Shown here: positions 3,576 to 11,607 of the stretch, one piece after another
Layout: each line of letters starts with the position of its first letter
Numbering within the stretch: position 1 is the stretch's first letter
DNA from: Candidatus Pacearchaeota archaeon
GTDB taxonomy: Archaea > Nanobdellota > Nanobdellia > Pacearchaeales > GW2011-AR1
Direction of reading: 5' to 3'
Assembly (NCBI GenBank): GCA_046705325.1
Contig: JBJKQQ010000002.1
Location: 1 to 38,195 of the forward strand
Length of the DNA stretch: 38,195 nucleotides
Made by a program: the position numbers and the translations under genes
The notes under the pieces: generated by a model
What the model saw: the letters and a program-made list of their open reading frames with translations, nothing else
What the model was told of the DNA's origin: nothing
The model's database searches: none

Positions 3576-3773
3576 TTACATGAATTTTCTGTCGGTGCCG
3601 TCAAGCAAATCCGGCCTCATGTTCTCGAGGTTTCCCTTGTCTCTGGCTTCGTCTGTCGTCTTCTTTATCGCGTCGAACATTTTCTTTCCCCAGACCTTCT
3701 CGCCGCAGCGGTCGCAGATTTCCATGGACCTGTCGTCGAGCAAATCCGAATTGCAGTAAACGCATCGCCTCAT
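3576..3773 (-). CDS. Small zinc-ribbon protein, function unknown
   Basis: 65 aa with CxxC (CVYC) and CxxC (CDRC) pairs. A TATA-like CTTTAAAAAG lies about 35-40 nt upstream on the minus strand. Confidence 0.5.
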   Translation of the reverse strand: MRRCVYCNSDLLDDRSMEICDRCGEKVWGKKMFDAIKKTTDEARDKGNLENMRPDLLDGTDRKFM

Positions 3774-3826
3774 TTTTTCACCTAACTTTGCTGAAGCAGG
3801 AAATTCTTTTTAAAGATTTGTATTGT

Positions 3827-3835
3827 TTCGTGATA
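3827..3835. repeat. Left copy of the 9-bp target-site duplication TTCGTGATA
   Basis: Identical 9-mer in direct orientation at 9186-9194, immediately outside the terminal inverted repeats. Confidence 0.8.
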
Positions 3836-3852
3836 GGCTTTGTAAATTAAGT
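3836..3852. repeat. Left terminal inverted repeat (17 bp)
   Basis: GGCTTTGTAAATTAAGT, a perfect reverse complement of 9169-9185. Confidence 0.85.
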
Positions 3853-3884
3853 CCTGATTTGGGCTGACTTTTTTTACAGAAAAC

Positions 3885-5297
3885 TTAGTCTTTCCTTAAT
3901 ATTTCCTGCATAAAAATATCACTACTTTTAGCCCTTAGTTCTTCGGCTTCTTTTATCAGAGTTTTTGCCTTTTTATAATCTTGATTAACCAGACTTATTA
4001 TCTTTTCTTGTGTTGTGATATTAGGCAGGGGAATTAAGGTATCGTAAAGTTCAGGGTCTCCTATCCTATCTCTTGAAGAACCTCTAATTGAATATTCCCA
4101 CTGCCTTAGGACATAAGGCGTTCTCAAAATAATCCAGAGATATTCGGGCAAAATTTTTTCAGAAACTATTTTCACAGGAATTAACTCTCCACTCCCTAAA
4201 AATCCATCTGTTTTTTCATCAACAATTATTATTTTTCCTTTTTCAGGTTGTAATCTTGAAATCAGTAATTCACCTTTCCTGAATACAACTTTGTCGCTCC
4301 CCAAAACAGGAACTTCTTTGATATTCTTTACTTCTCCAAAGTTTTCGTCTATGTCATATAATTCAACAAGGTCATAAAAGGGCTTTGGGGAAATCTCTCC
4401 TTTTTTTTGTATCTCAATAAGCTTTTCAAGAACTTCATAATCTCTTTTTTCTACTATGCCTCTTATCTTTTCTCTAAAAGGGCTATTAAATAAAGCGTCT
4501 ATTCTATCCAAATCAAGAGCGGAAGAATAGGTATTGAATTTTGATTTTTCTGGTAACTCTTCAAGTCCTAAAATTTTTCCTATCTTTTCATCTAATGCAA
4601 AGATTGTTTTTTGGCTTTCTTTTTTCTTGCTTTCAATATCTCTCTCAAGTTCTTCTATCTTCCTTATCGTCTCTCGCTGTTTGCTCAAACTTATCTCGCT
4701 GTCTGAGACAGGCAAAGAAATTTCAATCTCTCTGCAATTCTTGAGACTTAATTTATACTGCAAAGAACCGACAGCTAATCTGCTCGTCTGCATTTTACAA
4801 AAAGAAGTATTAAGCATATGAACTAAAAATTGAGTATCAATCTCATCCGTCTTTTTTCTTATCCTCGCAACATTTTCACTGAAAGCATTTTCTTGAAGAG
4901 GGGAATTAACAATTCCAACCTCTCCAATAGTCCCGACAATCGTAATAACTAAATCATCCTTTTTTAGATTGTAATTTTTTATTTGGGTATAGATTTCAGG
5001 ATTTATCTTCTTGCAGTCCTCAAAATCTATTCCCCCATCTTTCACGTCAGTAGCACTGATGTAAGGAATAGTGGTAAGCTCTGATTGTATCACAACCAAA
5101 CCTTTAGGCAATCTCTTCCCCCCGCTTACTCTTGCAACTCTTTCATCGCCTAAAGGTAATAATTCATTATTTTTGTTAGATAACTTCTTCCTTATGTTTT
5201 GAATTTTCCTTAGAAGGTATGGGCTATTAAATAAAGCGTCCAATCTTTCTGTCTTGTCATCTGTCAAGTCAAGAGAATAAAAATTTTCTTCATTCAT
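3885..5297 (-). CDS. hsdS: Restriction-modification specificity subunit (HsdS-like, two target-recognition halves)
   Basis: 470 aa. Each half opens with a (L/I)DALFNSP(Y/F) conserved segment (about residues 19-26 and 265-272). The two divergent TRD-like halves are separated by a charged, apparently helical spacer (residues ~205-225, KQRETIRKIEELERDIESKKKE). It overlaps the upstream MTase gene by 8 nt. Confidence 0.8.
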   Translation of the reverse strand: MNEENFYSLDLTDDKTERLDALFNSPYLLRKIQNIRKKLSNKNNELLPLGDERVARVSGGKRLPKGLVVIQSELTTIPYISATDVKDGGIDFEDCKKINPEIYTQIKNYNLKKDDLVITIVGTIGEVGIVNSPLQENAFSENVARIRKKTDEIDTQFLVHMLNTSFCKMQTSRLAVGSLQYKLSLKNCREIEISLPVSDSEISLSKQRETIRKIEELERDIESKKKESQKTIFALDEKIGKILGLEELPEKSKFNTYSSALDLDRIDALFNSPFREKIRGIVEKRDYEVLEKLIEIQKKGEISPKPFYDLVELYDIDENFGEVKNIKEVPVLGSDKVVFRKGELLISRLQPEKGKIIIVDEKTDGFLGSGELIPVKIVSEKILPEYLWIILRTPYVLRQWEYSIRGSSRDRIGDPELYDTLIPLPNITTQEKIISLVNQDYKKAKTLIKEAEELRAKSSDIFMQEILRKD

Positions 5298-7200
5298 TTC
5301 CTTTCAAAAATTCTTCATATTTATCATAAATCTTGGGTAAGTCATTAAGCTCCATAGTTTCTTTTCCTGCGTCATTATGCCCGACATTCTCGCTTATAGC
5401 CATAAAGACTTTTCCTTGTGTGTCTTTTGCTGATTTCTTTATTAAGTAAAGTATAGATGTTTTAACTCCTGCGTCTGCATTAACGAAAGTATTTTTAGGC
5501 AGGGAAATTATTGCCTTGATGATAAAATGATTTCTCAACCAATCTCTAAATCTTTTATATTCGTCTCCTTGTCCGTCTGCATTAAGGACGCTCTCGTCAA
5601 TTATTGTTATCAATTTTCCGCCTTCTTTCAGCAAATCAAAATATCTTTCAATAAACATAACATTTGATTTCAGGGAACGTATCTTATCCGAGTTTTCTCT
5701 TCCTTGAGGATATGCTAAATCGTATTGAGGCAAAATTCTTTTGTCATAATTATCCGACATTTTATATTTCATGCTGAAAGGGGGATTAGTCATAACAATA
5801 TCAAACCTCTTCTTTTCAAATAATTCTTTCAGTTCTTCTAATTCTTCTTTCCTCTCATCATTTAACCCTTTTGGAATTTCTACCTCTTTATCCAAAGTAT
5901 CTGCTAAAAATATATGGCTTCCCCCGTCTCCATGAAGATACATATTCATGCGGGCAATAGGAATAATCTTGTCCTCGCTTTTGTCAATCCCGAAAAGGCA
6001 TTTCTCCTTTATTTTCTTTTTTAGAACATCTTGATTAGTCTTGCAGTTCTTAGCTTTGTTTATCAAATCGCTAAGGGCAAAAATTAGGAAACCACCCGAA
6101 CCACAGCAACCATCTAAAATTAATGGCGGTTCGTAATCTTCTTTTTCCTTGTTATATTTTATCTGCAAGTTAGCTAACTTAGTCATAAATTTAACAACAG
6201 GTCTCGGAGTGAAGAACATTCCCAACTCTTTCCCCCTTATCACCGCACTCAAAAAAGTTTCAAAAACACGCCCGTTAATGTCATCCTCAACGCTCTTTAA
6301 GTCAAGATTTTCTATAAGCTTGGTTATCTCAATCGTGGTTTCTGTTTGCAATCCCAATTCTTCATTATCTTCAAAAATTCTTTTCTTCTCTTTTCTCTGG
6401 ACTTTTTTGTTTAATTCATCTCTGTATTGTTTGAACAGAACGTCCATCGGGTTTGCTTGTCTCTTGCTTAATTCTCTAATCCTATCAACAGAAAAGAATA
6501 CTTCTTCTTTAGGGATTGGCTTGTCTTTTTCTATTAACTCGTGAATTTTAGCGTCCTCATTTATCTTAACAAATAATAATTTAGTAAATCTGTAAAATGC
6601 TTCTTGAGGAGAAAGATTGTGTTTTTTCCAAATCAGATAATGGCACTGCTGGAAAATTCCCTTAAGCTCATCTATATCTGGTTGTCTGAACTCAAAGATT
6701 TCATCCTCTTTGCCTTTTATGTTTTCTCTTAATGAATTGTAAGAATAAACCTCTTTCAGTTTTTCATATTTCTTATTTCCGTCAATAAAATCTGAAAAAC
6801 TTAATTCAAGCACTGGTTTGTTTTCATCAAGTCTTAACAGGCAGGTTTTTATTCCGTTGCTAACCAAACAATAAGTTATTGGATTTGTCCCGATATACCC
6901 TCTGTTTATTATCTCTGAATAATCTTGTGCTTCATGGAAAAAGTCTTGGACTTCTAAATCAGGATGTTTTGCCTCAACAACAGAAATGATTATCCGATTG
7001 CTTCTCAAAGCATAATCGGGTCTATGTTCTGTTTTCTTCGCTCCTTTTCCGATTAGATATTTTGGTATTAAATGCTTTGTCTGAATATTTGTGTCCTTGT
7101 ATCCTAAATCCTTTAACAACCTGTCAATAAAGAAATGTTCAACGTCGCTCTCGTTTCTCAATACACTTCTCTCGCAGAATTTGTTTTTTTCTGCAACCAT
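5290..7200 (-). CDS. Gamma-class N6-adenine DNA methyltransferase (HsdM-like) fused to an N-terminal HSDR_N/PD-(D/E)xK-like domain
   Basis: Motif I LDGCCGSGGFL precedes motif IV VMTNPPF. The N-terminal roughly 100 aa contain HRPDYAL...ISVVEAKHP (PD...ExK pattern). Confidence 0.8.
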   Translation of the reverse strand: MVAEKNKFCERSVLRNESDVEHFFIDRLLKDLGYKDTNIQTKHLIPKYLIGKGAKKTEHRPDYALRSNRIIISVVEAKHPDLEVQDFFHEAQDYSEIINRGYIGTNPITYCLVSNGIKTCLLRLDENKPVLELSFSDFIDGNKKYEKLKEVYSYNSLRENIKGKEDEIFEFRQPDIDELKGIFQQCHYLIWKKHNLSPQEAFYRFTKLLFVKINEDAKIHELIEKDKPIPKEEVFFSVDRIRELSKRQANPMDVLFKQYRDELNKKVQRKEKKRIFEDNEELGLQTETTIEITKLIENLDLKSVEDDINGRVFETFLSAVIRGKELGMFFTPRPVVKFMTKLANLQIKYNKEKEDYEPPLILDGCCGSGGFLIFALSDLINKAKNCKTNQDVLKKKIKEKCLFGIDKSEDKIIPIARMNMYLHGDGGSHIFLADTLDKEVEIPKGLNDERKEELEELKELFEKKRFDIVMTNPPFSMKYKMSDNYDKRILPQYDLAYPQGRENSDKIRSLKSNVMFIERYFDLLKEGGKLITIIDESVLNADGQGDEYKRFRDWLRNHFIIKAIISLPKNTFVNADAGVKTSILYLIKKSAKDTQGKVFMAISENVGHNDAGKETMELNDLPKIYDKYEEFLKGNE

Positions 7201-7233
7201 AGAGTTTAAATACGTTTCGCATATTTAAACTCT
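7201..7233. promoter_or_regulatory. Palindromic promoter/operator of the MTase-S operon
   Basis: AGAGTTTAAATA-9 nt-TATTTAAACTCT forms perfect 12-bp inverted arms, each containing TTTAAATA. The minus-strand TATA (7229-7222) is centred about 25 nt from the MTase ATG (7200). Confidence 0.6.
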
Positions 7234-7295
7234 TCGTTTTTAAGCTTTTCCCGATTAGTTACGTCGCAGGCGTAACAGAATTCCCATTTTCATTC

Positions 7296-8540
7296 TTACA
7301 ATTCTTTTGTCTGCTCCAAAATAAACTCGGATTTTATGCCGAGTTCGTTCACTTCTTGGATTACAACGCAGATGTTATGGCAGAGGACTTTAAGCAAAAG
7401 TTCATTATATTGGGCTGTTTTGTTCTTGCTCCTTATCGCTCCGCCGAACTTTGCCTTAATCATGTGGAAAGTCGTTTCTACATTACTGCGGGCGTGATAG
7501 TGTTCAAGAAATTCATCATGCTTGTATAGAAAATAGTGATACATTTTTCCCCACAGACCGAGCGTTCCTCTTTTTCCTGAAACATTTTTCTTGAACGGAA
7601 TGAAAGCAACTCCGCCGACTTCGTCAATTACCTTAAGATTTGCTCGGCTGTTGTATGCTTTATCTCCACTTTGTTCTTTTATTGTGAAGTTCTCGGCTGT
7701 CTTTCTTACGAGTTCGGCAAGTTGCGGGCTGTCGTTTTCAGTTCCTTCCGTAACCTTGACTGAAGTGATGATGTTTGTTTTTGTCCCTGCATTTATGTGG
7801 GCTTTGAGCCAGACTTTATACTTTCGCTCCTTTCCCCATTTGTAATCAAACCAACGAGCATATCTTGAAGTTGAAAATCCCGAACTGTCAACTGCGAAGC
7901 TCGTGTCTGTTTCTTTCAACGGCAACGAGCTTAATGTAATCAGGTTTTCAAGTATCGGCGTCATCTCTGGCTTGTTCATATAATTGCTGACGCTCATATA
8001 AGTCGGCTCGTTCTCAATCAATCCGAACTCTTTGGCTATCTTGACATCGGACATGAACCGCCTTAAAGAAAATGTTGAATAAACTTTGAGAGCCGAATTA
8101 AAAATCATTTCCGAGATTGGAAGATTAGGTCTTCCGAATTTATATTCTGGCTGTTCAACATTATCCGCCAAATCTTTTAACAACCTCATAAAGATTATTT
8201 TCTCATTTGTTTGCGACTTGTCGTATGCTTTCCAATCTTGCTTATAGCTAACCTTTACGCCTTTGGTCTCTATGATTTTTCCTTCTTCGTCTATCTGCCT
8301 TTTTATGTAAAGCTCAACAGCGATTATATGCTTGCATTTCTTATGTCGCAGTTCGCAATCAGGACACGAGCAGACAGGATTTTCATTCCTGAAAATTACT
8401 TTGTATGCTTTGAACGAGGTTTGAGAGCCGACAACCCAAAAGTTATTCTGCTTTCTTATCCTTCCACGCTGAAAGATTAGCTTTCCTTTCTGCTCTCGGT
8501 CAAGATTTCTCAAATCCACCGATTGTATCTTTGTATTCAT
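7296..8540 (-). CDS. DDE transposase (IS4/IS5 superfamily) with an N-terminal SWIM zinc finger
   Basis: SWIM signature CSCPDCELRHKKCKH. Candidate DDE residues lie in FAVDSSGF, SGDKAYNS and NVETTF. An exact Y-x2-R-x3-E-x6-K signature is present (YHARSNVETTFHMIK). Confidence 0.85.
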   Translation of the reverse strand: MNTKIQSVDLRNLDREQKGKLIFQRGRIRKQNNFWVVGSQTSFKAYKVIFRNENPVCSCPDCELRHKKCKHIIAVELYIKRQIDEEGKIIETKGVKVSYKQDWKAYDKSQTNEKIIFMRLLKDLADNVEQPEYKFGRPNLPISEMIFNSALKVYSTFSLRRFMSDVKIAKEFGLIENEPTYMSVSNYMNKPEMTPILENLITLSSLPLKETDTSFAVDSSGFSTSRYARWFDYKWGKERKYKVWLKAHINAGTKTNIITSVKVTEGTENDSPQLAELVRKTAENFTIKEQSGDKAYNSRANLKVIDEVGGVAFIPFKKNVSGKRGTLGLWGKMYHYFLYKHDEFLEHYHARSNVETTFHMIKAKFGGAIRSKNKTAQYNELLLKVLCHNICVVIQEVNELGIKSEFILEQTKEL

Positions 8541-8547
8541 AATATAT

Positions 8548-8633
8548 TTAGATACCTAACCTTTATATACTTTTCGGTATCTAAAAGTATAAGTTGCAGA
8601 ATAGAAATCTTTATAAATAATAGGTATCTAAAA
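8548..8633. promoter_or_regulatory. Divergent promoter region with three copies of the 9-mer GGTATCTAA and two TATA boxes
   Basis: TTAGATACC at 8548-8556 (inverted), and GGTATCTAAAA at 8576-8586 and 8623-8633. TTTATATA (8562-8569) lies about 25 nt from the transposase ATG. TTTATAAATA (8610-8619) lies about 25 nt from the AbrB-like ATG. Confidence 0.55.
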
Positions 8634-8638
8634 AGGAC

Positions 8639-8800
8639 ATGAAATTGCAGAGCCAAATTTCAAGAAAGGTCGGTGAAACTGAATATCTTAAATCTTGGGT
8701 TGTTATACCTAATAAAATTCTTGAACAGCTTAAATGGAAATCGGGTCAGGATTTGGACGGAGAAGTTAAAGATGGCAAGTTGATTGTTAAGAAAAAATGA
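8639..8800 (+). CDS. AbrB/SpoVT-type (MazE-like) small DNA-binding protein, 53 aa, absent from the supplied ORF track
   Basis: Manual translation: MKLQSQISRKVGETEYLKSWVVIPNKILEQLKWKSGQDLDGEVKDGKLIVKKK. It shows the swapped-hairpin pattern v.IPk.i...L.wk.Gd.l...v.dgklivkk. Its stop overlaps the next ATG (ATGA). Confidence 0.65.
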   Translation: MKLQSQISRKVGETEYLKSWVVIPNKILEQLKWKSGQDLDGEVKDGKLIVKKK

Positions 8801-9138
8801 ACAAAAAAATTTATGAAAAATTAAAAGATGTTGCAAGAAGAAAAGACACAATTTCTTATTCACAATTAGCAAGTGATTGTAATTTCCCTTATTCTTCTAT
8901 TGATGAAAGAAATAAGTTTCATGAATTATTGGTGGAGATTTCAAGATTTGAAGTAGCAAATGGAAAGCCAATGTTATCTGTATTAGTTCATCATAAAGGA
9001 GATGTTGAAAGAAAATGTGGAAAAGGATTTTTTGAATTAGCAGATGAACTTAATCAGAGAAAAGAAAATGAAAAAGGAAATGATAAAAAAATGCAATATA
9101 GGATTATTGGAGAAGTTTGGAAAGAATATAACAAGTAA
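8797..9138 (+). CDS. Hypothetical 113-aa protein translationally coupled to the AbrB-like gene; possibly a winged-helix fold
   Basis: The ORF has a 4-nt ATGA overlap with the upstream gene. TISYSQLA...LLVEISRFEVANGKPMLSVLVHHKG is loosely reminiscent of MGMT/ATL-type wHTH but lacks a catalytic Cys motif. T-rich tracts follow the stop. Confidence 0.5.
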   Translation: MNKKIYEKLKDVARRKDTISYSQLASDCNFPYSSIDERNKFHELLVEISRFEVANGKPMLSVLVHHKGDVERKCGKGFFELADELNQRKENEKGNDKKMQYRIIGEVWKEYNK

Positions 9139-9168
9139 TTTTTTTCAGAGACTTTTTTTACAAAAGCC

Positions 9169-9185
9169 ACTTAATTTACAAAGCC
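9169..9185. repeat. Right terminal inverted repeat (17 bp)
   Basis: ACTTAATTTACAAAGCC, the reverse complement of 3836-3852. Confidence 0.85.
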
Positions 9186-9194
9186 TTCGTGATA
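9186..9194. repeat. Right copy of the 9-bp target-site duplication TTCGTGATA
   Basis: Identical to 3827-3835, in direct orientation. Confidence 0.8.
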
Positions 9195-9229
9195 GTAACG
9201 TTTAAAAACTGAAGTTCAGGTGTAATACC

Positions 9230-9427
9230 ATGATAATTCCGGTAAGATGTTTTTCATGCGGCAAGCCGCTCGGCCATTTGTGGGAAGAATACAAGCGCCG
9301 CGTCGCGGAAGGCGAAAAGTCCAGCAAGGTCCTCGACGAGCTGGGCATAGAAAGATTCTGCTGCAGGTCTGTGTTCCTCGGGCAAACGGATTTGATTGAG
9401 CTGGTCGGCAAATTCAAGAAAGCTTAA
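9230..9427 (+). CDS. rpoN: RNA polymerase subunit N (Rpo10)
   Basis: MIIPVRCFSCGKPLG..WEEY......G......LDELGIERFCCR. TATA TTTAAAAA (9201-9208) lies about 25 nt upstream of the ATG. Confidence 0.9.
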   Translation: MIIPVRCFSCGKPLGHLWEEYKRRVAEGEKSSKVLDELGIERFCCRSVFLGQTDLIELVGKFKKA

Positions 9428-9689
9428 GCTTGCTGATTTTATATCTGGATACATAATCGCAATTTCCGCATTCAATTGATTTTATTCCTTTGTTAATTTT
9501 GATTTTTTCTTTTCCTGAATAAGGCATCAAACACTTTTTGCAAAACGATTTTCTTTTTTCGCGAAGCCTGATGTTTGAATTCGCAGCCAGCTTCTTAATT
9601 TTCTTGACTTCTTTCGGAGTTTTGTTTTTTATATCCACAAAAAATTCTTCAATTTGTTTCGCGGCTTCAGACTTTGAAAGTTTTTTCAT
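9414..9689 (-). CDS. rnp4: RNase P protein component 4 (Rpp21/Rpr2 family)
   Basis: 91 aa with a basic helical N-terminus followed by the zinc ribbon FCKKC...ECGNC. It converges on rpoN with a 14-nt overlap. Confidence 0.7.
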   Translation of the reverse strand: MKKLSKSEAAKQIEEFFVDIKNKTPKEVKKIKKLAANSNIRLREKRKSFCKKCLMPYSGKEKIKINKGIKSIECGNCDYVSRYKISKLKLS

Positions 9690-10078
9690 TCAATTAATAC
9701 CTCCAATTCAGGATAGTTCTCCTTGCATCTCTCTGCCAGTAGCCTTCTATGGCATTTCTCTGAGGTTTTTTCAATACAGAGCAATCTTATATCTTTTCCT
9801 GCTGCTGCAAGGGTAAGATTCTCCACTTCTTCTCGTATGGAATCAAGATAATCAAAGTATCTTTTTTCAAACTCTTCCCAAGGAAGATATCTTTTATAAT
9901 AATCTCCAATAAGTTTTAATGGCGGCGCAAAAACATTCCAATGTTCATCGTAAGAAATGCCTTCGGTTATTCTCCTGTCCAGAGTTGTTCCGTCATTCAG
10001 GGTGTGCCTCGACATAATAGAAACCCTCAGAGTATCTTGTTCATTGTAATAAGTCAGAATGCAACCTGTTTTTAGCAT
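9686..10078 (-). CDS. DUF488 family protein
   Basis: HW..FAPPLKL...Y......WEEFEKRYFDYL.......L......K.IRLLCIEK..EKCHRRLLAE is the typical DUF488 pattern. Confidence 0.65.
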   Translation of the reverse strand: MLKTGCILTYYNEQDTLRVSIMSRHTLNDGTTLDRRITEGISYDEHWNVFAPPLKLIGDYYKRYLPWEEFEKRYFDYLDSIREEVENLTLAAAGKDIRLLCIEKTSEKCHRRLLAERCKENYPELEVLIE

Positions 10079-10298: not shown

Positions 10299-10382
10299 GC
10301 GGGGGTGCCGGAGTGGTCAAACGGGCAAGATTAAGGCTCTTGTGGGTTAGTCCCTACACAGGTTCGAATCCTGTCTCCCGCA
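10299..10382 (+). tRNA. Class-II tRNA-Leu. The anticodon loop TTAAGGC reads AAG in the canonical register.
   Basis: The cloverleaf folds by hand. Acceptor GCGGGGG/CTCCCGC, anticodon stem CAAGA/TCTTG, long variable arm GGG..CCC, T arm ACAGG-TTCGAAT-CCTGT, discriminator A. TATA-like sequence lies about 29 nt upstream. Confidence 0.8.
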
Positions 10383-10433: not shown

Positions 10434-10454
10434 TTCGAATCCTGTCTCCCGCAT
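10434..10454 (+). repeat. 21-nt direct duplicate of the tRNA-Leu T-loop/acceptor 3' end
   Basis: TTCGAATCCTGTCTCCCGCAT at 10363-10383 recurs exactly at 10434-10454. A T5 run (10454-10458) follows only the second copy. Confidence 0.85.
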
Positions 10455-10566: not shown

Positions 10567-11607
10567 ATGAAAATATTGTTGTCTAGAGAATCAAAGAAAA
10601 AACTACTTAAGTCCTTGCTTGAAAAAAATTTTTGCAGTTCTCTAAAGGAACTTTCAGAGATTCTAAAAATATCCAAGGGAACTTTAAGCGATTGGTTTTA
10701 TTCTGGAAAGAGATATTTGCCTGAAGAGATCATCCCTATACGCTTGAAGAGCAGGTTGCAAATTTTGGATCTCCAAAAAGATAATTGGGGGAAGATTAAG
10801 GGAGGAAAAGAAACTTACAAAATAATCTCCAAAAAATACGGGAAATCTGAAATCAAAAGAAGGCAGTCTCGGGGAGGAAAAGTTTCTGGAGAAAATCGGG
10901 GGAGCCTCGACAAACCTCTAAATCTTGATTTATCAAACAAATATCTTTTGGAATTCTACGGCGCGCTTCTCGGCGATGGCTGGATGGGAATATATAATGC
11001 TAAGAAAAAGCCCATTTATCTCATTGGTATTGCAGGCCATCTGACCCGGGATAAGGATTATCTTCTTTATCTGAGAGAAATAGTAAAAAGGTTTTTTGAC
11101 CGGAAAGGTTATCTGAAAGAAAGACCCCGCTACAATTGTTTAGAATTGCATTGTTATCATAAAAAACTCCTCTCCTTTTTTAATCAAAAATTAAACTTTC
11201 CTGTTGGCAAAAAAATTAATTTAAAGATCAACGATGAAATAGTCGAGTCTGGTTTTGATAAAATGAAATATGTGATAAGAGGAATATTTGATACTGATGG
11301 CTCTTTTTATTTAGACAAAGATCCTGCCGGAATGCCTTATCCTTGCATTTCCTTAACAATGAAATCTCCTCTGCTTTTGGAACAGGTTAGTAAGGTCTTG
11401 TTGAACGAGGGATTCAAAGTGAGTTTCAGGAAAGAGAAATATATGCTAACTCTGAAAGGAAAAAAACAAGTTTCTAAATGGTTAAAATCGATAGGTTTTT
11501 CAAACGAAAAACACCTAAAAAAGATAAGGTCCTGTAACTCAGCCTGGATAGAGTGCCACCCCCCTAAGGTGGAAGTCGTAGGTTCAAATCCTATCAGGGC
11601 CGCTTGA
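10567..11607 (+). CDS. LAGLIDADG homing endonuclease (double-motif) with an N-terminal HTH-like region. The ORF tail reads through tRNA 11528-11602.
   Basis: LAGLIDADG motifs LLEFYGALLGDGWM and VIRGIFDTDGSFY. TATATAAAA (10538-10546) lies about 25 nt upstream of the ATG. There is no in-frame stop before 11605-11607. Confidence 0.8.
   Translation: MKILLSRESKKKLLKSLLEKNFCSSLKELSEILKISKGTLSDWFYSGKRYLPEEIIPIRLKSRLQILDLQKDNWGKIKGGKETYKIISKKYGKSEIKRRQSRGGKVSGENRGSLDKPLNLDLSNKYLLEFYGALLGDGWMGIYNAKKKPIYLIGIAGHLTRDKDYLLYLREIVKRFFDRKGYLKERPRYNCLELHCYHKKLLSFFNQKLNFPVGKKINLKINDEIVESGFDKMKYVIRGIFDTDGSFYLDKDPAGMPYPCISLTMKSPLLLEQVSKVLLNEGFKVSFRKEKYMLTLKGKKQVSKWLKSIGFSNEKHLKKIRSCNSAWIECHPPKVEVVGSNPIRAA
11528..11602 (+). 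tRNA. tRNA, probably Arg(CCU). The anticodon loop is CCCCTAA, with an unusual C at position 33.
   Basis: A 75-nt cloverleaf. Acceptor GGTCCTG/CAGGGCC, D arm ACTC..GAGT, anticodon stem CCACC/GGTGG, T arm GTAGG-TTCAAAT-CCTAT. Confidence 0.7.

Follow-up and report, generated by a model that had tools for sequence, protein, structure and literature searches.

Two overlapping genes on the minus strand of a 38,195-nt stretch of DNA from a Candidatus Pacearchaeota archaeon (contig JBJKQQ010000002.1 of assembly GCA_046705325.1, hereafter the window) probably encode a self-contained restriction-modification (R-M) enzyme that resembles the Type IIB enzymes BcgI and BsaXI. The first gene, RM (5290-7200), codes for a protein of 636 aa, in which a nuclease, a helical connector and an N6-adenine methyltransferase are joined in a single polypeptide. 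The second gene, S (3885-5297), codes for an HsdS-like protein of 470 aa with two target recognition domains (TRDs) and two helical conserved regions. A preliminary description of this DNA had proposed a Type IIB-like architecture, and at the level of sequence this proposal is supported by the near-full-length match of RM to the RM subunit of BsaXI and by the pairing of RM and S without a helicase. The pair would thus represent a new, uncharacterised archaeal member of a known enzyme class, which is more compact than BsaXI and carries a lysine at the position of the BsaXI residue E73. Both genes are carried by an intact unit transposon of the IS903 group, i.e. by a cargo-carrying element and not by a plain insertion sequence (IS).

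Domain organization of RM and S

The two open reading frames (ORFs) can hardly have arisen by chance, because they are long ORFs in DNA of 33% guanine plus cytosine (GC) and show strong family matches. In RM, Pfam recognizes HSDR_N at residues 55-120 (29.7 bits against a curated cut-off of 25.1), N6_Mtase at residues 306-631 (E 7.9e-39) and Eco57I at residues 400-569 (E 1.1e-15). The last two matches define a gamma-class N6-adenine methyltransferase domain (5293-6303, minus strand), in which motif I, LDGCCGSGGFL (residues 362-372, 6085-6117), stands N-terminal to motif IV, TNPPF (residues 471-475, 5776-5790); the residues of both motifs are invariant in 31 homologues. This motif order had already been noticed in the preliminary description and is present in the 636-aa translation. 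The same is true for the segments RPDYAL (residues 60-65) and VVEAKHP (residues 74-80), whose earlier interpretation as a PD...ExK arrangement agrees with the HSDR_N match above the Pfam cut-off. Likewise, the partner had been described as a two-TRD HsdS-like protein that overlaps RM by 8 nt, which is consistent with two stretches of Methylase_S in the 470-aa protein (E 4.4e-17) and with the overlap found at 5290-5297, ATGAATGA. A TTTAAATA box precedes the start codon of RM by approximately 25 nt. A scan for sigma-70 promoters and terminators was uninformative, as it returned no more matches than shuffled sequences did and the host is an archaeon.

The best sequence match of RM in the PDB is the RM subunit of BsaXI (8w0p_A, E 5.5e-29). 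The alignment pairs RM residues 14-594 with BsaXI residues 45-627 and spans nuclease, connector and methyltransferase, whereas Type I M subunits align with RM from about residue 290 onward only. An AlphaFold2 model of RM, built from 31 homologues, has a mean predicted local distance difference test (pLDDT) score of 82.4, and most values for residues 1-160 range between 80 and 97. When this model was compared with the PDB by Foldseek, three BsaXI entries appeared on top (E 6.6e-23 to 6.8e-21), followed by the Type IIG enzyme DrdV and then by Type I M subunits, which match the fold of RM over the methyltransferase part only; BpuSI is also among the fold matches. Residues ~166-299 (6304-6705, minus strand) form the helical connector with modelled helices at 176-194, 198-224, 238-268 and 286-296, which aligns with the region described for BsaXI as a 'multi-helical connector' (PMC11997821).

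The N-terminal part of RM, residues 1-165 (6706-7200, minus strand), was assigned to the PD-(D/E)xK nucleases on the basis of the HSDR_N match, a profile match and the predicted secondary structure. The first 160 residues of the model show the alpha-beta-beta-beta-alpha-beta order that is typical of these nucleases. When a profile was made of residues 1-165, it matched 3h1t, a Type I HsdR structure, in the nuclease domain (E 4.3e-5). In the aligned pairs L-R-N-E-S-D/A-L-N-E-A-D, PDY/ADY, IEAK/VEAK and EAQDYA/QAKDYA, both proteins are in register at the helix-1 Glu and at the PD, ExK and Q..Y motifs. Hence, the N-terminal nuclease fold that had been suggested earlier is supported by Pfam as well as by the profile comparison with 3h1t.

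The S protein has the layout TRD-helix-TRD-helix and is matched in the PDB by the Type I S subunits 5ybb_D and 3okg_A (E ~2e-13). No sequence match to the S chain of BsaXI was obtained at E <=0.1, because S subunits are too variable. When the two halves of S were compared with each other, only the short motif (L/I)DALFNSP(Y/F) was found in common. It is encoded at the start of each half by a 29-nt direct repeat inside the S gene (4480-4508 and 5221-5249), whose copies are 90% identical and 741 nt apart. This repeat could serve recombination events that delete or swap a TRD.

Catalytic residues and their conservation

Alanine scanning of BsaXI has shown that E73, D90, E105 and K107 are each needed for cleavage (PMC11997821). 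Counting of positions along the 8w0p_A alignment places D90, E105 and K107 of BsaXI opposite D62 (codon 7015-7017), E76 (6973-6975) and K78 (6967-6969) of RM, respectively, all on the minus strand. Further residues of the putative active site are the helix-1 residue E17 and E90, Q92 and Y94. Among 31 homologues of 52-100% identity, E17, P61, D62, Y63, E76, K78, Q92 and Y94 are invariant.

A search of 1.84 billion cluster representatives, which returned 10,023 matches at E <=0.001 and 779 at E <=1e-30, permitted a wider view on the conservation of these residues. For the following counts, 64 full-length representatives of 50%-identity clusters were aligned in their N-terminal parts. Position 62 is occupied by D and position 78 by K in 63 of the 64 sequences each, while position 76 is E in one half of them and D in the other (32 each). 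The helix-1 glutamate at position 17 is present in 59 representatives and the tyrosine at position 94 in 62; at position 90, Q was found in 51, D in 8 and E in 5. Positions 90 and 94 together form a (Q/E)xxxY motif, such as also occurs in the nucleases of HsdR. The catalytic triad postulated in the preliminary description thus corresponds to residues of BsaXI that were proven by mutagenesis, and it is conserved family-wide. Purifying selection on an active nuclease would be expected to leave such a pattern.

Several observations weigh against a functional Type IIB-like enzyme. First, the fourth residue essential for cleavage by BsaXI, E73, aligns with the non-acidic Lys42 of RM (codon 7075-7077). 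This lysine is invariant in the close family and occupies position 42 in 46 of the 64 representatives, and Glu is found there only in the most distant relatives (8 of 64); the HsdR structure 3h1t also has a Glu at the equivalent position. The conserved helix-1 residue E17 might compensate for the missing glutamate. Second, RM is devoid of the C-terminal knob and paddle of BsaXI, and BsaXI also requires two residues of the paddle, D816 and E823, for cleavage (PMC11997821). Third, the identity between RM and BsaXI is only ~22%, and no characterised close homologue of RM was identified. Finally, the view is limited to 38 kb of the host genome, and a trans-acting partner encoded elsewhere is possible.

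The first two of these observations would also fit a module consisting of M and S only, in which the nuclease fold is retained but silent and the protein works together with S as an orphan methyltransferase, for example in epigenetic marking or in the protection against other restriction enzymes. The public annotation points in the same direction, since all family members are labelled exclusively as 'N-6 DNA methylase' or as 'type I restriction enzyme M protein'. However, the retention of the triad, the helix-1 Glu and the (Q/E)xxxY motif across the 64 representatives is hard to explain for a dead site, and BcgI, which is a proven nuclease, also lacks the paddle (PMC11997821, Fig. 8 legend). 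Moreover, the other R-M cargo found in the transposon family of the window element, which is described below, mostly consists of a methyltransferase together with a nuclease domain that could be identified, or else with a small unidentified ORF. The fact that most of these cargoes have an identified nuclease in addition to the methyltransferase gives indirect support to the view that the window pair is a complete system as well. We therefore regard the modification-only module as unlikely, albeit as the strongest competitor of the Type IIB-like enzyme.

Search for a motor gene

The preliminary description had stated that the element contains no HsdR gene, and the present search extends this statement to the entire window and to homologous loci. 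The element bounded by the inverted repeats (3836-9185) contains four ORFs only, i.e. S, RM, the transposase and a 113-aa ORF. Neither in the element nor in the 38-kb window was a candidate for a helicase, translocase or HsdR detected, and no ORF with a ResIII or Helicase_C match is present. The window ORFs of at least 500 aa are restricted to RM, a 919-aa homologue of STT3/AglB and a 507-aa homologue of SecD.

In addition, the surroundings of nine homologues in ten distinct places were fetched, with flanks of up to 10 kb where the contig allows. They comprise contigs of 3.1 Mb, 427 kb and 584 kb, three contigs of 29-88 kb, and the closest relatives, which are 75-87% identical. In all ten places RM is succeeded by a gene that codes for an S subunit or for an equally large protein, and the two genes mostly overlap slightly; at one place the gene in the S position is shortened and displaced. 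No ResIII or helicase gene was found in the fetched flanks of these ten places. A Type I system with a linked HsdR gene is hence rejected for the window and, within the fetched flanks, for the examined homologous loci.

The wider family is large: of 8,000 candidates that were scored, 2,708 proteins matched at E <=1e-5. Most representatives of the 50%-identity clusters are ~860-920 aa long (many have ~870 aa) and carry a single TRD fused C-terminally, P0114 and P0118 being examples. Two copies on actinobacterial plasmids (L176 and L177; the annotated coordinates correspond to 898 and 919 aa) are solitary, without an S or R gene, and are annotated as 'N-6 DNA methylase' only. Since RM+S pairs and single-TRD fusions both occur, specificity is modular in this family. 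In the loci examined, a motor is never part of the unit.

It is very improbable that the pair belongs to a Type I system and is served by an HsdR motor from another part of the genome, with the nuclease fused to M as an accessory and cleavage achieved via ATP-dependent translocation. Such an assignment can draw on the resemblance of the methyltransferase and S parts to Type I M and S subunits, on the top PADLOC models, which are 'MTase_I' for RM and 'Specificity_I' for S, and on the fact that only 38 kb of the genome are in view. On the other hand, the fetched flanks of the examined homologous loci, three of which lie on contigs of 0.4 to 3.1 Mb, are free of helicase genes, the two genes travel together as a cassette that occurs in three kinds of mobile context, and the nuclease domain fused to M is exactly what HsdR normally supplies. 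Weakest of all is the idea that the two genes are a fragment of some more extensive defence system, for example of the multi-gene methylation-associated defence system MADS (MAD2 methyltransferase, MAD5 S), which was dropped: the top NCBIfam models are indeed antiphage_MADS2 and antiphage_MADS5, and PADLOC also reports mad2 and mad5 matches, but the NCBIfam scores are far under the curated cut-offs (173.6 vs 720 and 105.3 vs 400 bits), the MAD2 match begins at residue 163 and excludes the nuclease domain, the partner genes are absent, the transposon contains no further defence genes, and its outside neighbours are housekeeping genes.

Comparison with known enzymes and proposed mode of action

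Type IIB enzymes composed of RM and S, such as BcgI and BsaXI, are well known, and fusions of HSDR_N with N6_Mtase are a common architecture. The RM subunit of BcgI has ~637 aa; its S subunit is, with 341 aa, shorter than the 470-aa S protein described here. BcgI is the prototype of the Type IIB enzymes with the composition A2B (Kong 1998 as cited in PMC9159934 and PMC11997821), and its likeness to the window pair, compared by description only, lies in the two-gene arrangement. Both RM proteins have the nuclease site at the N-terminus, which reads PE-X12-ExK in BcgI and PD-X13-EAK in the window protein, and neither possesses a knob or paddle. An AlphaFold model of the BcgI S subunit displays skewed conserved regions (PMC11997821, Fig. 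8 legend).

BsaXI, a Type IIB enzyme from Geobacillus sp. (PDB 8w0p/8w2p/8w2q), shows the same order of nuclease, helical connector and N6-adenine methyltransferase. As in the window, a separate two-TRD S gene follows directly after RM (476 aa in BsaXI vs 470 aa here; PMC9159934), an ATPase is missing, and the catalytic D/E/K residues align. The differences concern the size of RM, which has 916 aa including knob and paddle in BsaXI but 636 aa without either of them here, and the location of the genes, which are transposon-borne in an archaeal host in the present case. With the M2S core of Type I enzymes (EcoKI and EcoR124I; PDB 5ybb, 2okc and 3ufb) the pair shares the homologous methyltransferase domain and S subunit. 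The N-terminal domain of RM is homologous to the nuclease of HsdR; it is, however, fused to M instead of to a helicase, and no motor is present. In Type IIG/IIL enzymes (MmeI, Eco57I, BpuSI, DrdV) a PD-(D/E)xK nuclease is likewise followed by a gamma-class N6-adenine methyltransferase in one chain. Each of these enzymes contains a single TRD of its own and cleaves on only one side of the site, whereas specificity resides in a separate two-TRD subunit in the window pair.

By analogy with these enzymes a mode of action can be proposed. BsaXI is an (RM)2S complex (PMC11997821), and by analogy with it and with BcgI two RM protomers would assemble on one S subunit to give (RM)2S. The S subunit would recognise a bipartite target, at which the methyltransferase domains would use S-adenosylmethionine for the methylation of an adenine in each half-site when the DNA is that of the host. 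If methylation is lacking, the two nuclease domains would be expected to cleave both strands at a fixed distance from the target on either side, so that a short fragment would be excised as is characteristic of Type IIB enzymes; this reaction would need Mg2+ but no ATP-driven translocation. Restriction of this kind would act as a defence of the host against foreign DNA, and the carrier transposon would be stabilised by post-segregational killing.

The carrier transposon

The earlier suggestion that the pair rides a transposon has proven correct. The element extends over 5350 bp (3836-9185) and has, in minus-strand order, an inverted repeat, a 113-aa ORF on the opposite strand, the transposase, RM, S and the second inverted repeat. 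The left terminal inverted repeat GGCTTTGTAAATTAAGT is 17 bp long (3836-3852, plus strand; refined against related elements), and the right one (9169-9185, minus strand) is its perfect complement; these are the only two copies in the window, as compared with 0.05 expected by chance. An exactly matching 9-bp target-site duplication, TTCGTGATA, borders the element on the left (3827-3835) and on the right (9186-9194). An alternative inner inverted repeat that would bracket the transposase alone was not found in the element. The R-M genes have a GC content of ~33%, the remaining element of 31-41%, and the housekeeping DNA to the left of 41-48%.

The transposase (414 aa, 7296-8540, minus strand) is encoded directly upstream of RM on the same strand and consists of an N-terminal SWIM zinc finger (Pfam E 1.3e-5) and a DDE_Tnp_1 domain of the IS5 family (E 9.4e-22). 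Its top NCBIfam model is the IS5-family transpos_IS5_2, with 124.8 bits under the 140-bit cut-off. Divergent from the transposase, the 113-aa ORF (8797-9138, plus strand) is the fourth gene of the transposon. It has no match in Pfam, NCBIfam, PADLOC or the PDB, and its homologues fall into 17 clusters of 61-71% identity. The two homologues whose context was examined are chromosomal, located among housekeeping genes or near an N6_N4 methyltransferase, and are not accompanied by this transposase.

The insertion point is bordered on the left by a small Zn-ribbon gene on the minus strand (3576-3773) and on the right by rpoN on the plus strand (9230-9427). In silico removal of the element together with one copy of the duplication yielded joined flanks that aligned without gaps across the junction to seven related metagenome contigs, three of them at 80-82% nucleotide identity (L093, L094, L095) and four at 71-75% (L096, L100, L102, L104). 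The empty site in related contigs therefore demonstrates the insertion. The insertion is flanked by TATA-like A/T-rich boxes, namely TTTTTAAA to its left (window 3805-3835) and TTTAAAAA to its right (9195-9229). The Zn-ribbon gene and rpoN are divergent, and each has one of these boxes upstream; relatives with the empty site have conserved both boxes. The presumed promoters of both genes hence look spared.

Among insertion sequences, IS903 offers the closest comparison given here. Its length is ~1.06 kb, whereas the window element comprises 5.35 kb with three extra genes and a transposase with an N-terminal SWIM zinc finger. Common features are the GGCTTTG start of the repeat and the DDE_Tnp_1 transposase. 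In IS903B the repeat GGCTTTGTTGAATAAATC is combined with a 9-bp direct repeat (PMC10569121); the repeat of the window element starts with GGCTTTGT and is also associated with a 9-bp duplication.

Bacterial R-M units with inverted repeats, short duplications and an empty site in a relative were reported by Furuta, Abe and Kobayashi in 2010 (PMC2853133). One of these units, from Neisseria gonorrhoeae, is bounded by 26-bp inverted repeats and an 8-bp duplication and contains a truncated Type IIG RM homologue, an S homologue and the remnant of a transposase (PMC2853133). It thus resembles the window element in its BcgI-like RM+S cargo; however, its RM is truncated and its transposase degraded, whereas the window element is intact and has a transposase of another family. 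No archaeal R-M unit survived the screen of Furuta et al. (PMC2853133), and a survey of thaumarchaeal mobile elements from 2019 stated that passenger-carrying transposons were not detected in archaea (PMC6563490).

Some features of the DNA to the right of the transposon may be mentioned separately. A DUF488 protein encoded just outside of it (9686-10078, minus strand) matches the PADLOC candidate-defence model PDC-M45C (E 2.3e-12). The 3' end of a tRNA-Leu gene (10299-10382) recurs as an exact 21-nt copy 71 nt later (10434-10454), and it is followed by an ORF for a 346-aa protein with LAGLIDADG domain (10567-11607), the end of which overlaps a tRNA-Arg gene (11528-11603), and then by a tRNA-Gly gene, the noted region reaching to 11735. 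The GC content stays low (~36-40%) from the transposon to ~11600. The region with the copied tRNA-Leu 3' end and the LAGLIDADG ORF may be the remnant of another integration.

Relatives of the cassette and of its vehicle

The cassette of RM and S is separable from its vehicle, since the same cassette occurs in a second kind of mobile context. In the closest relatives of the pair, in which RM is 75-87% and S 53-78% identical to the window proteins, DNA similarity to the window is confined to the two genes (3896-7308); S reaches 78% in the closest related locus, L007. In L007 (6960-12781), L087 (6290-12263), L088 and L089, where RM is 81-87% identical, the pair adjoins an unrelated transposase and a gene for a protein of ~300 aa, which is conserved and has no family match. 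That transposase has IS240/IS66-like DDE matches in Pfam and an N-terminal region resembling the SWIM finger of the window transposase. L090 has no transposase gene, and the short contigs L091 and L092 end in an uncharacterised gene. Inverted repeats of the IS903 type were sought around L007 and L087-L092, and none were found there.

Relatives of the window transposase were found in 101 places in species-representative genomes. The closest of them (60-85% identity) are almost all located in metagenome-assembled genomes of Woesearchaeota, Pacearchaeota and Nanoarchaeota, i.e. in the DPANN group. Together with the archaeal housekeeping genes of the window, these relatives point to a host of the DPANN type. 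Among the transposase loci, 34 further elements of 1.3-11 kb (within L009-L086) are bounded by inverted repeats like those of the window element and by a 9-bp duplication, which is exact in all but two of them; these two have one mismatch. The lineage thus forms at least 35 bounded elements. According to the annotation of the cargo by Pfam and NCBIfam, R-M genes are present in 18 of the 35 bounded elements, with the window element included, and they occur on either side of the transposase. The closest transposase, with 85% identity and the same inverted repeat, belongs to L009, in which a different nuclease-methyltransferase gene takes the same position downstream.

The R-M cargo covers a wide range of types. 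A combination of HSDR_N-N6_Mtase protein and S is present in L060 (Methanothrix) and L045 (a bacterium), but these proteins are only 25-27% identical to the window pair and placed differently. The RM+S genes in the window, L060 and L045 count as three independent captures by the transposon lineage. Single-chain Type IIG enzymes (HSDR_N with N6_Mtase/Eco57I and TaqI_C) are carried by L016, L026, L030 and L070, an 852-aa HSDR_N_2 plus N6_Mtase protein without an identified TRD domain by L036, and a 1240-aa methyltransferase fused to a two-TRD S part by L018. Type II cargo, i.e. a C5 or N6 methyltransferase with a small ORF, was found in L010, L020, L021, L037 and L049, Type III Mod and Res in L011 and L029, and N6_N4_Mtase-Mrr fusions in L046 and L082. 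Cargo other than R-M, such as proteases and TPR/HTH proteins, is present in L052, L072, L050, L055 and L075, and the elements L019, L067 and L086 are bare or deleted.

It might be that this IS903-group lineage with SWIM and DDE domains, GGCTTTG... repeats and 9-bp duplications has repeatedly captured whole R-M systems and is a dedicated R-M vehicle, mostly in DPANN archaea and also in methanogens and several bacterial phyla. We put this forward tentatively, as an idea whose chances fall slightly short of even. In the literature that was covered, which is incomplete and does not include ISfinder and REBASE, no account of this IS903-like lineage with R-M cargo was found.

Implications

Loci such as the one described here are presumably counted as incomplete Type I systems or as orphan methyltransferases, though they probably encode complete restriction systems. 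Such miscounting would bias the censuses of defence systems, especially for the small-genome DPANN archaea and the bacteria of the candidate phyla radiation (CPR). Type IIB enzymes are also useful reagents, for example in 2b-RAD. In this regard, compact RM+S versions without knob or paddle could provide new specificities and a test of the need for the paddle in cleavage.

Furthermore, the window offers a very clean archaeal example of an intact autonomous transposon that has an R-M system as its cargo, which bears on the idea of selfish, mobile R-M systems as well as on the 2019 statement about passenger-carrying transposons in archaea (PMC6563490). The class of the enzyme is ordinary, and the transposon lineage is the more interesting lead. 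If this lineage is truly a vehicle for R-M systems, it would provide direct evidence for the autonomous transposition of R-M units in archaea.

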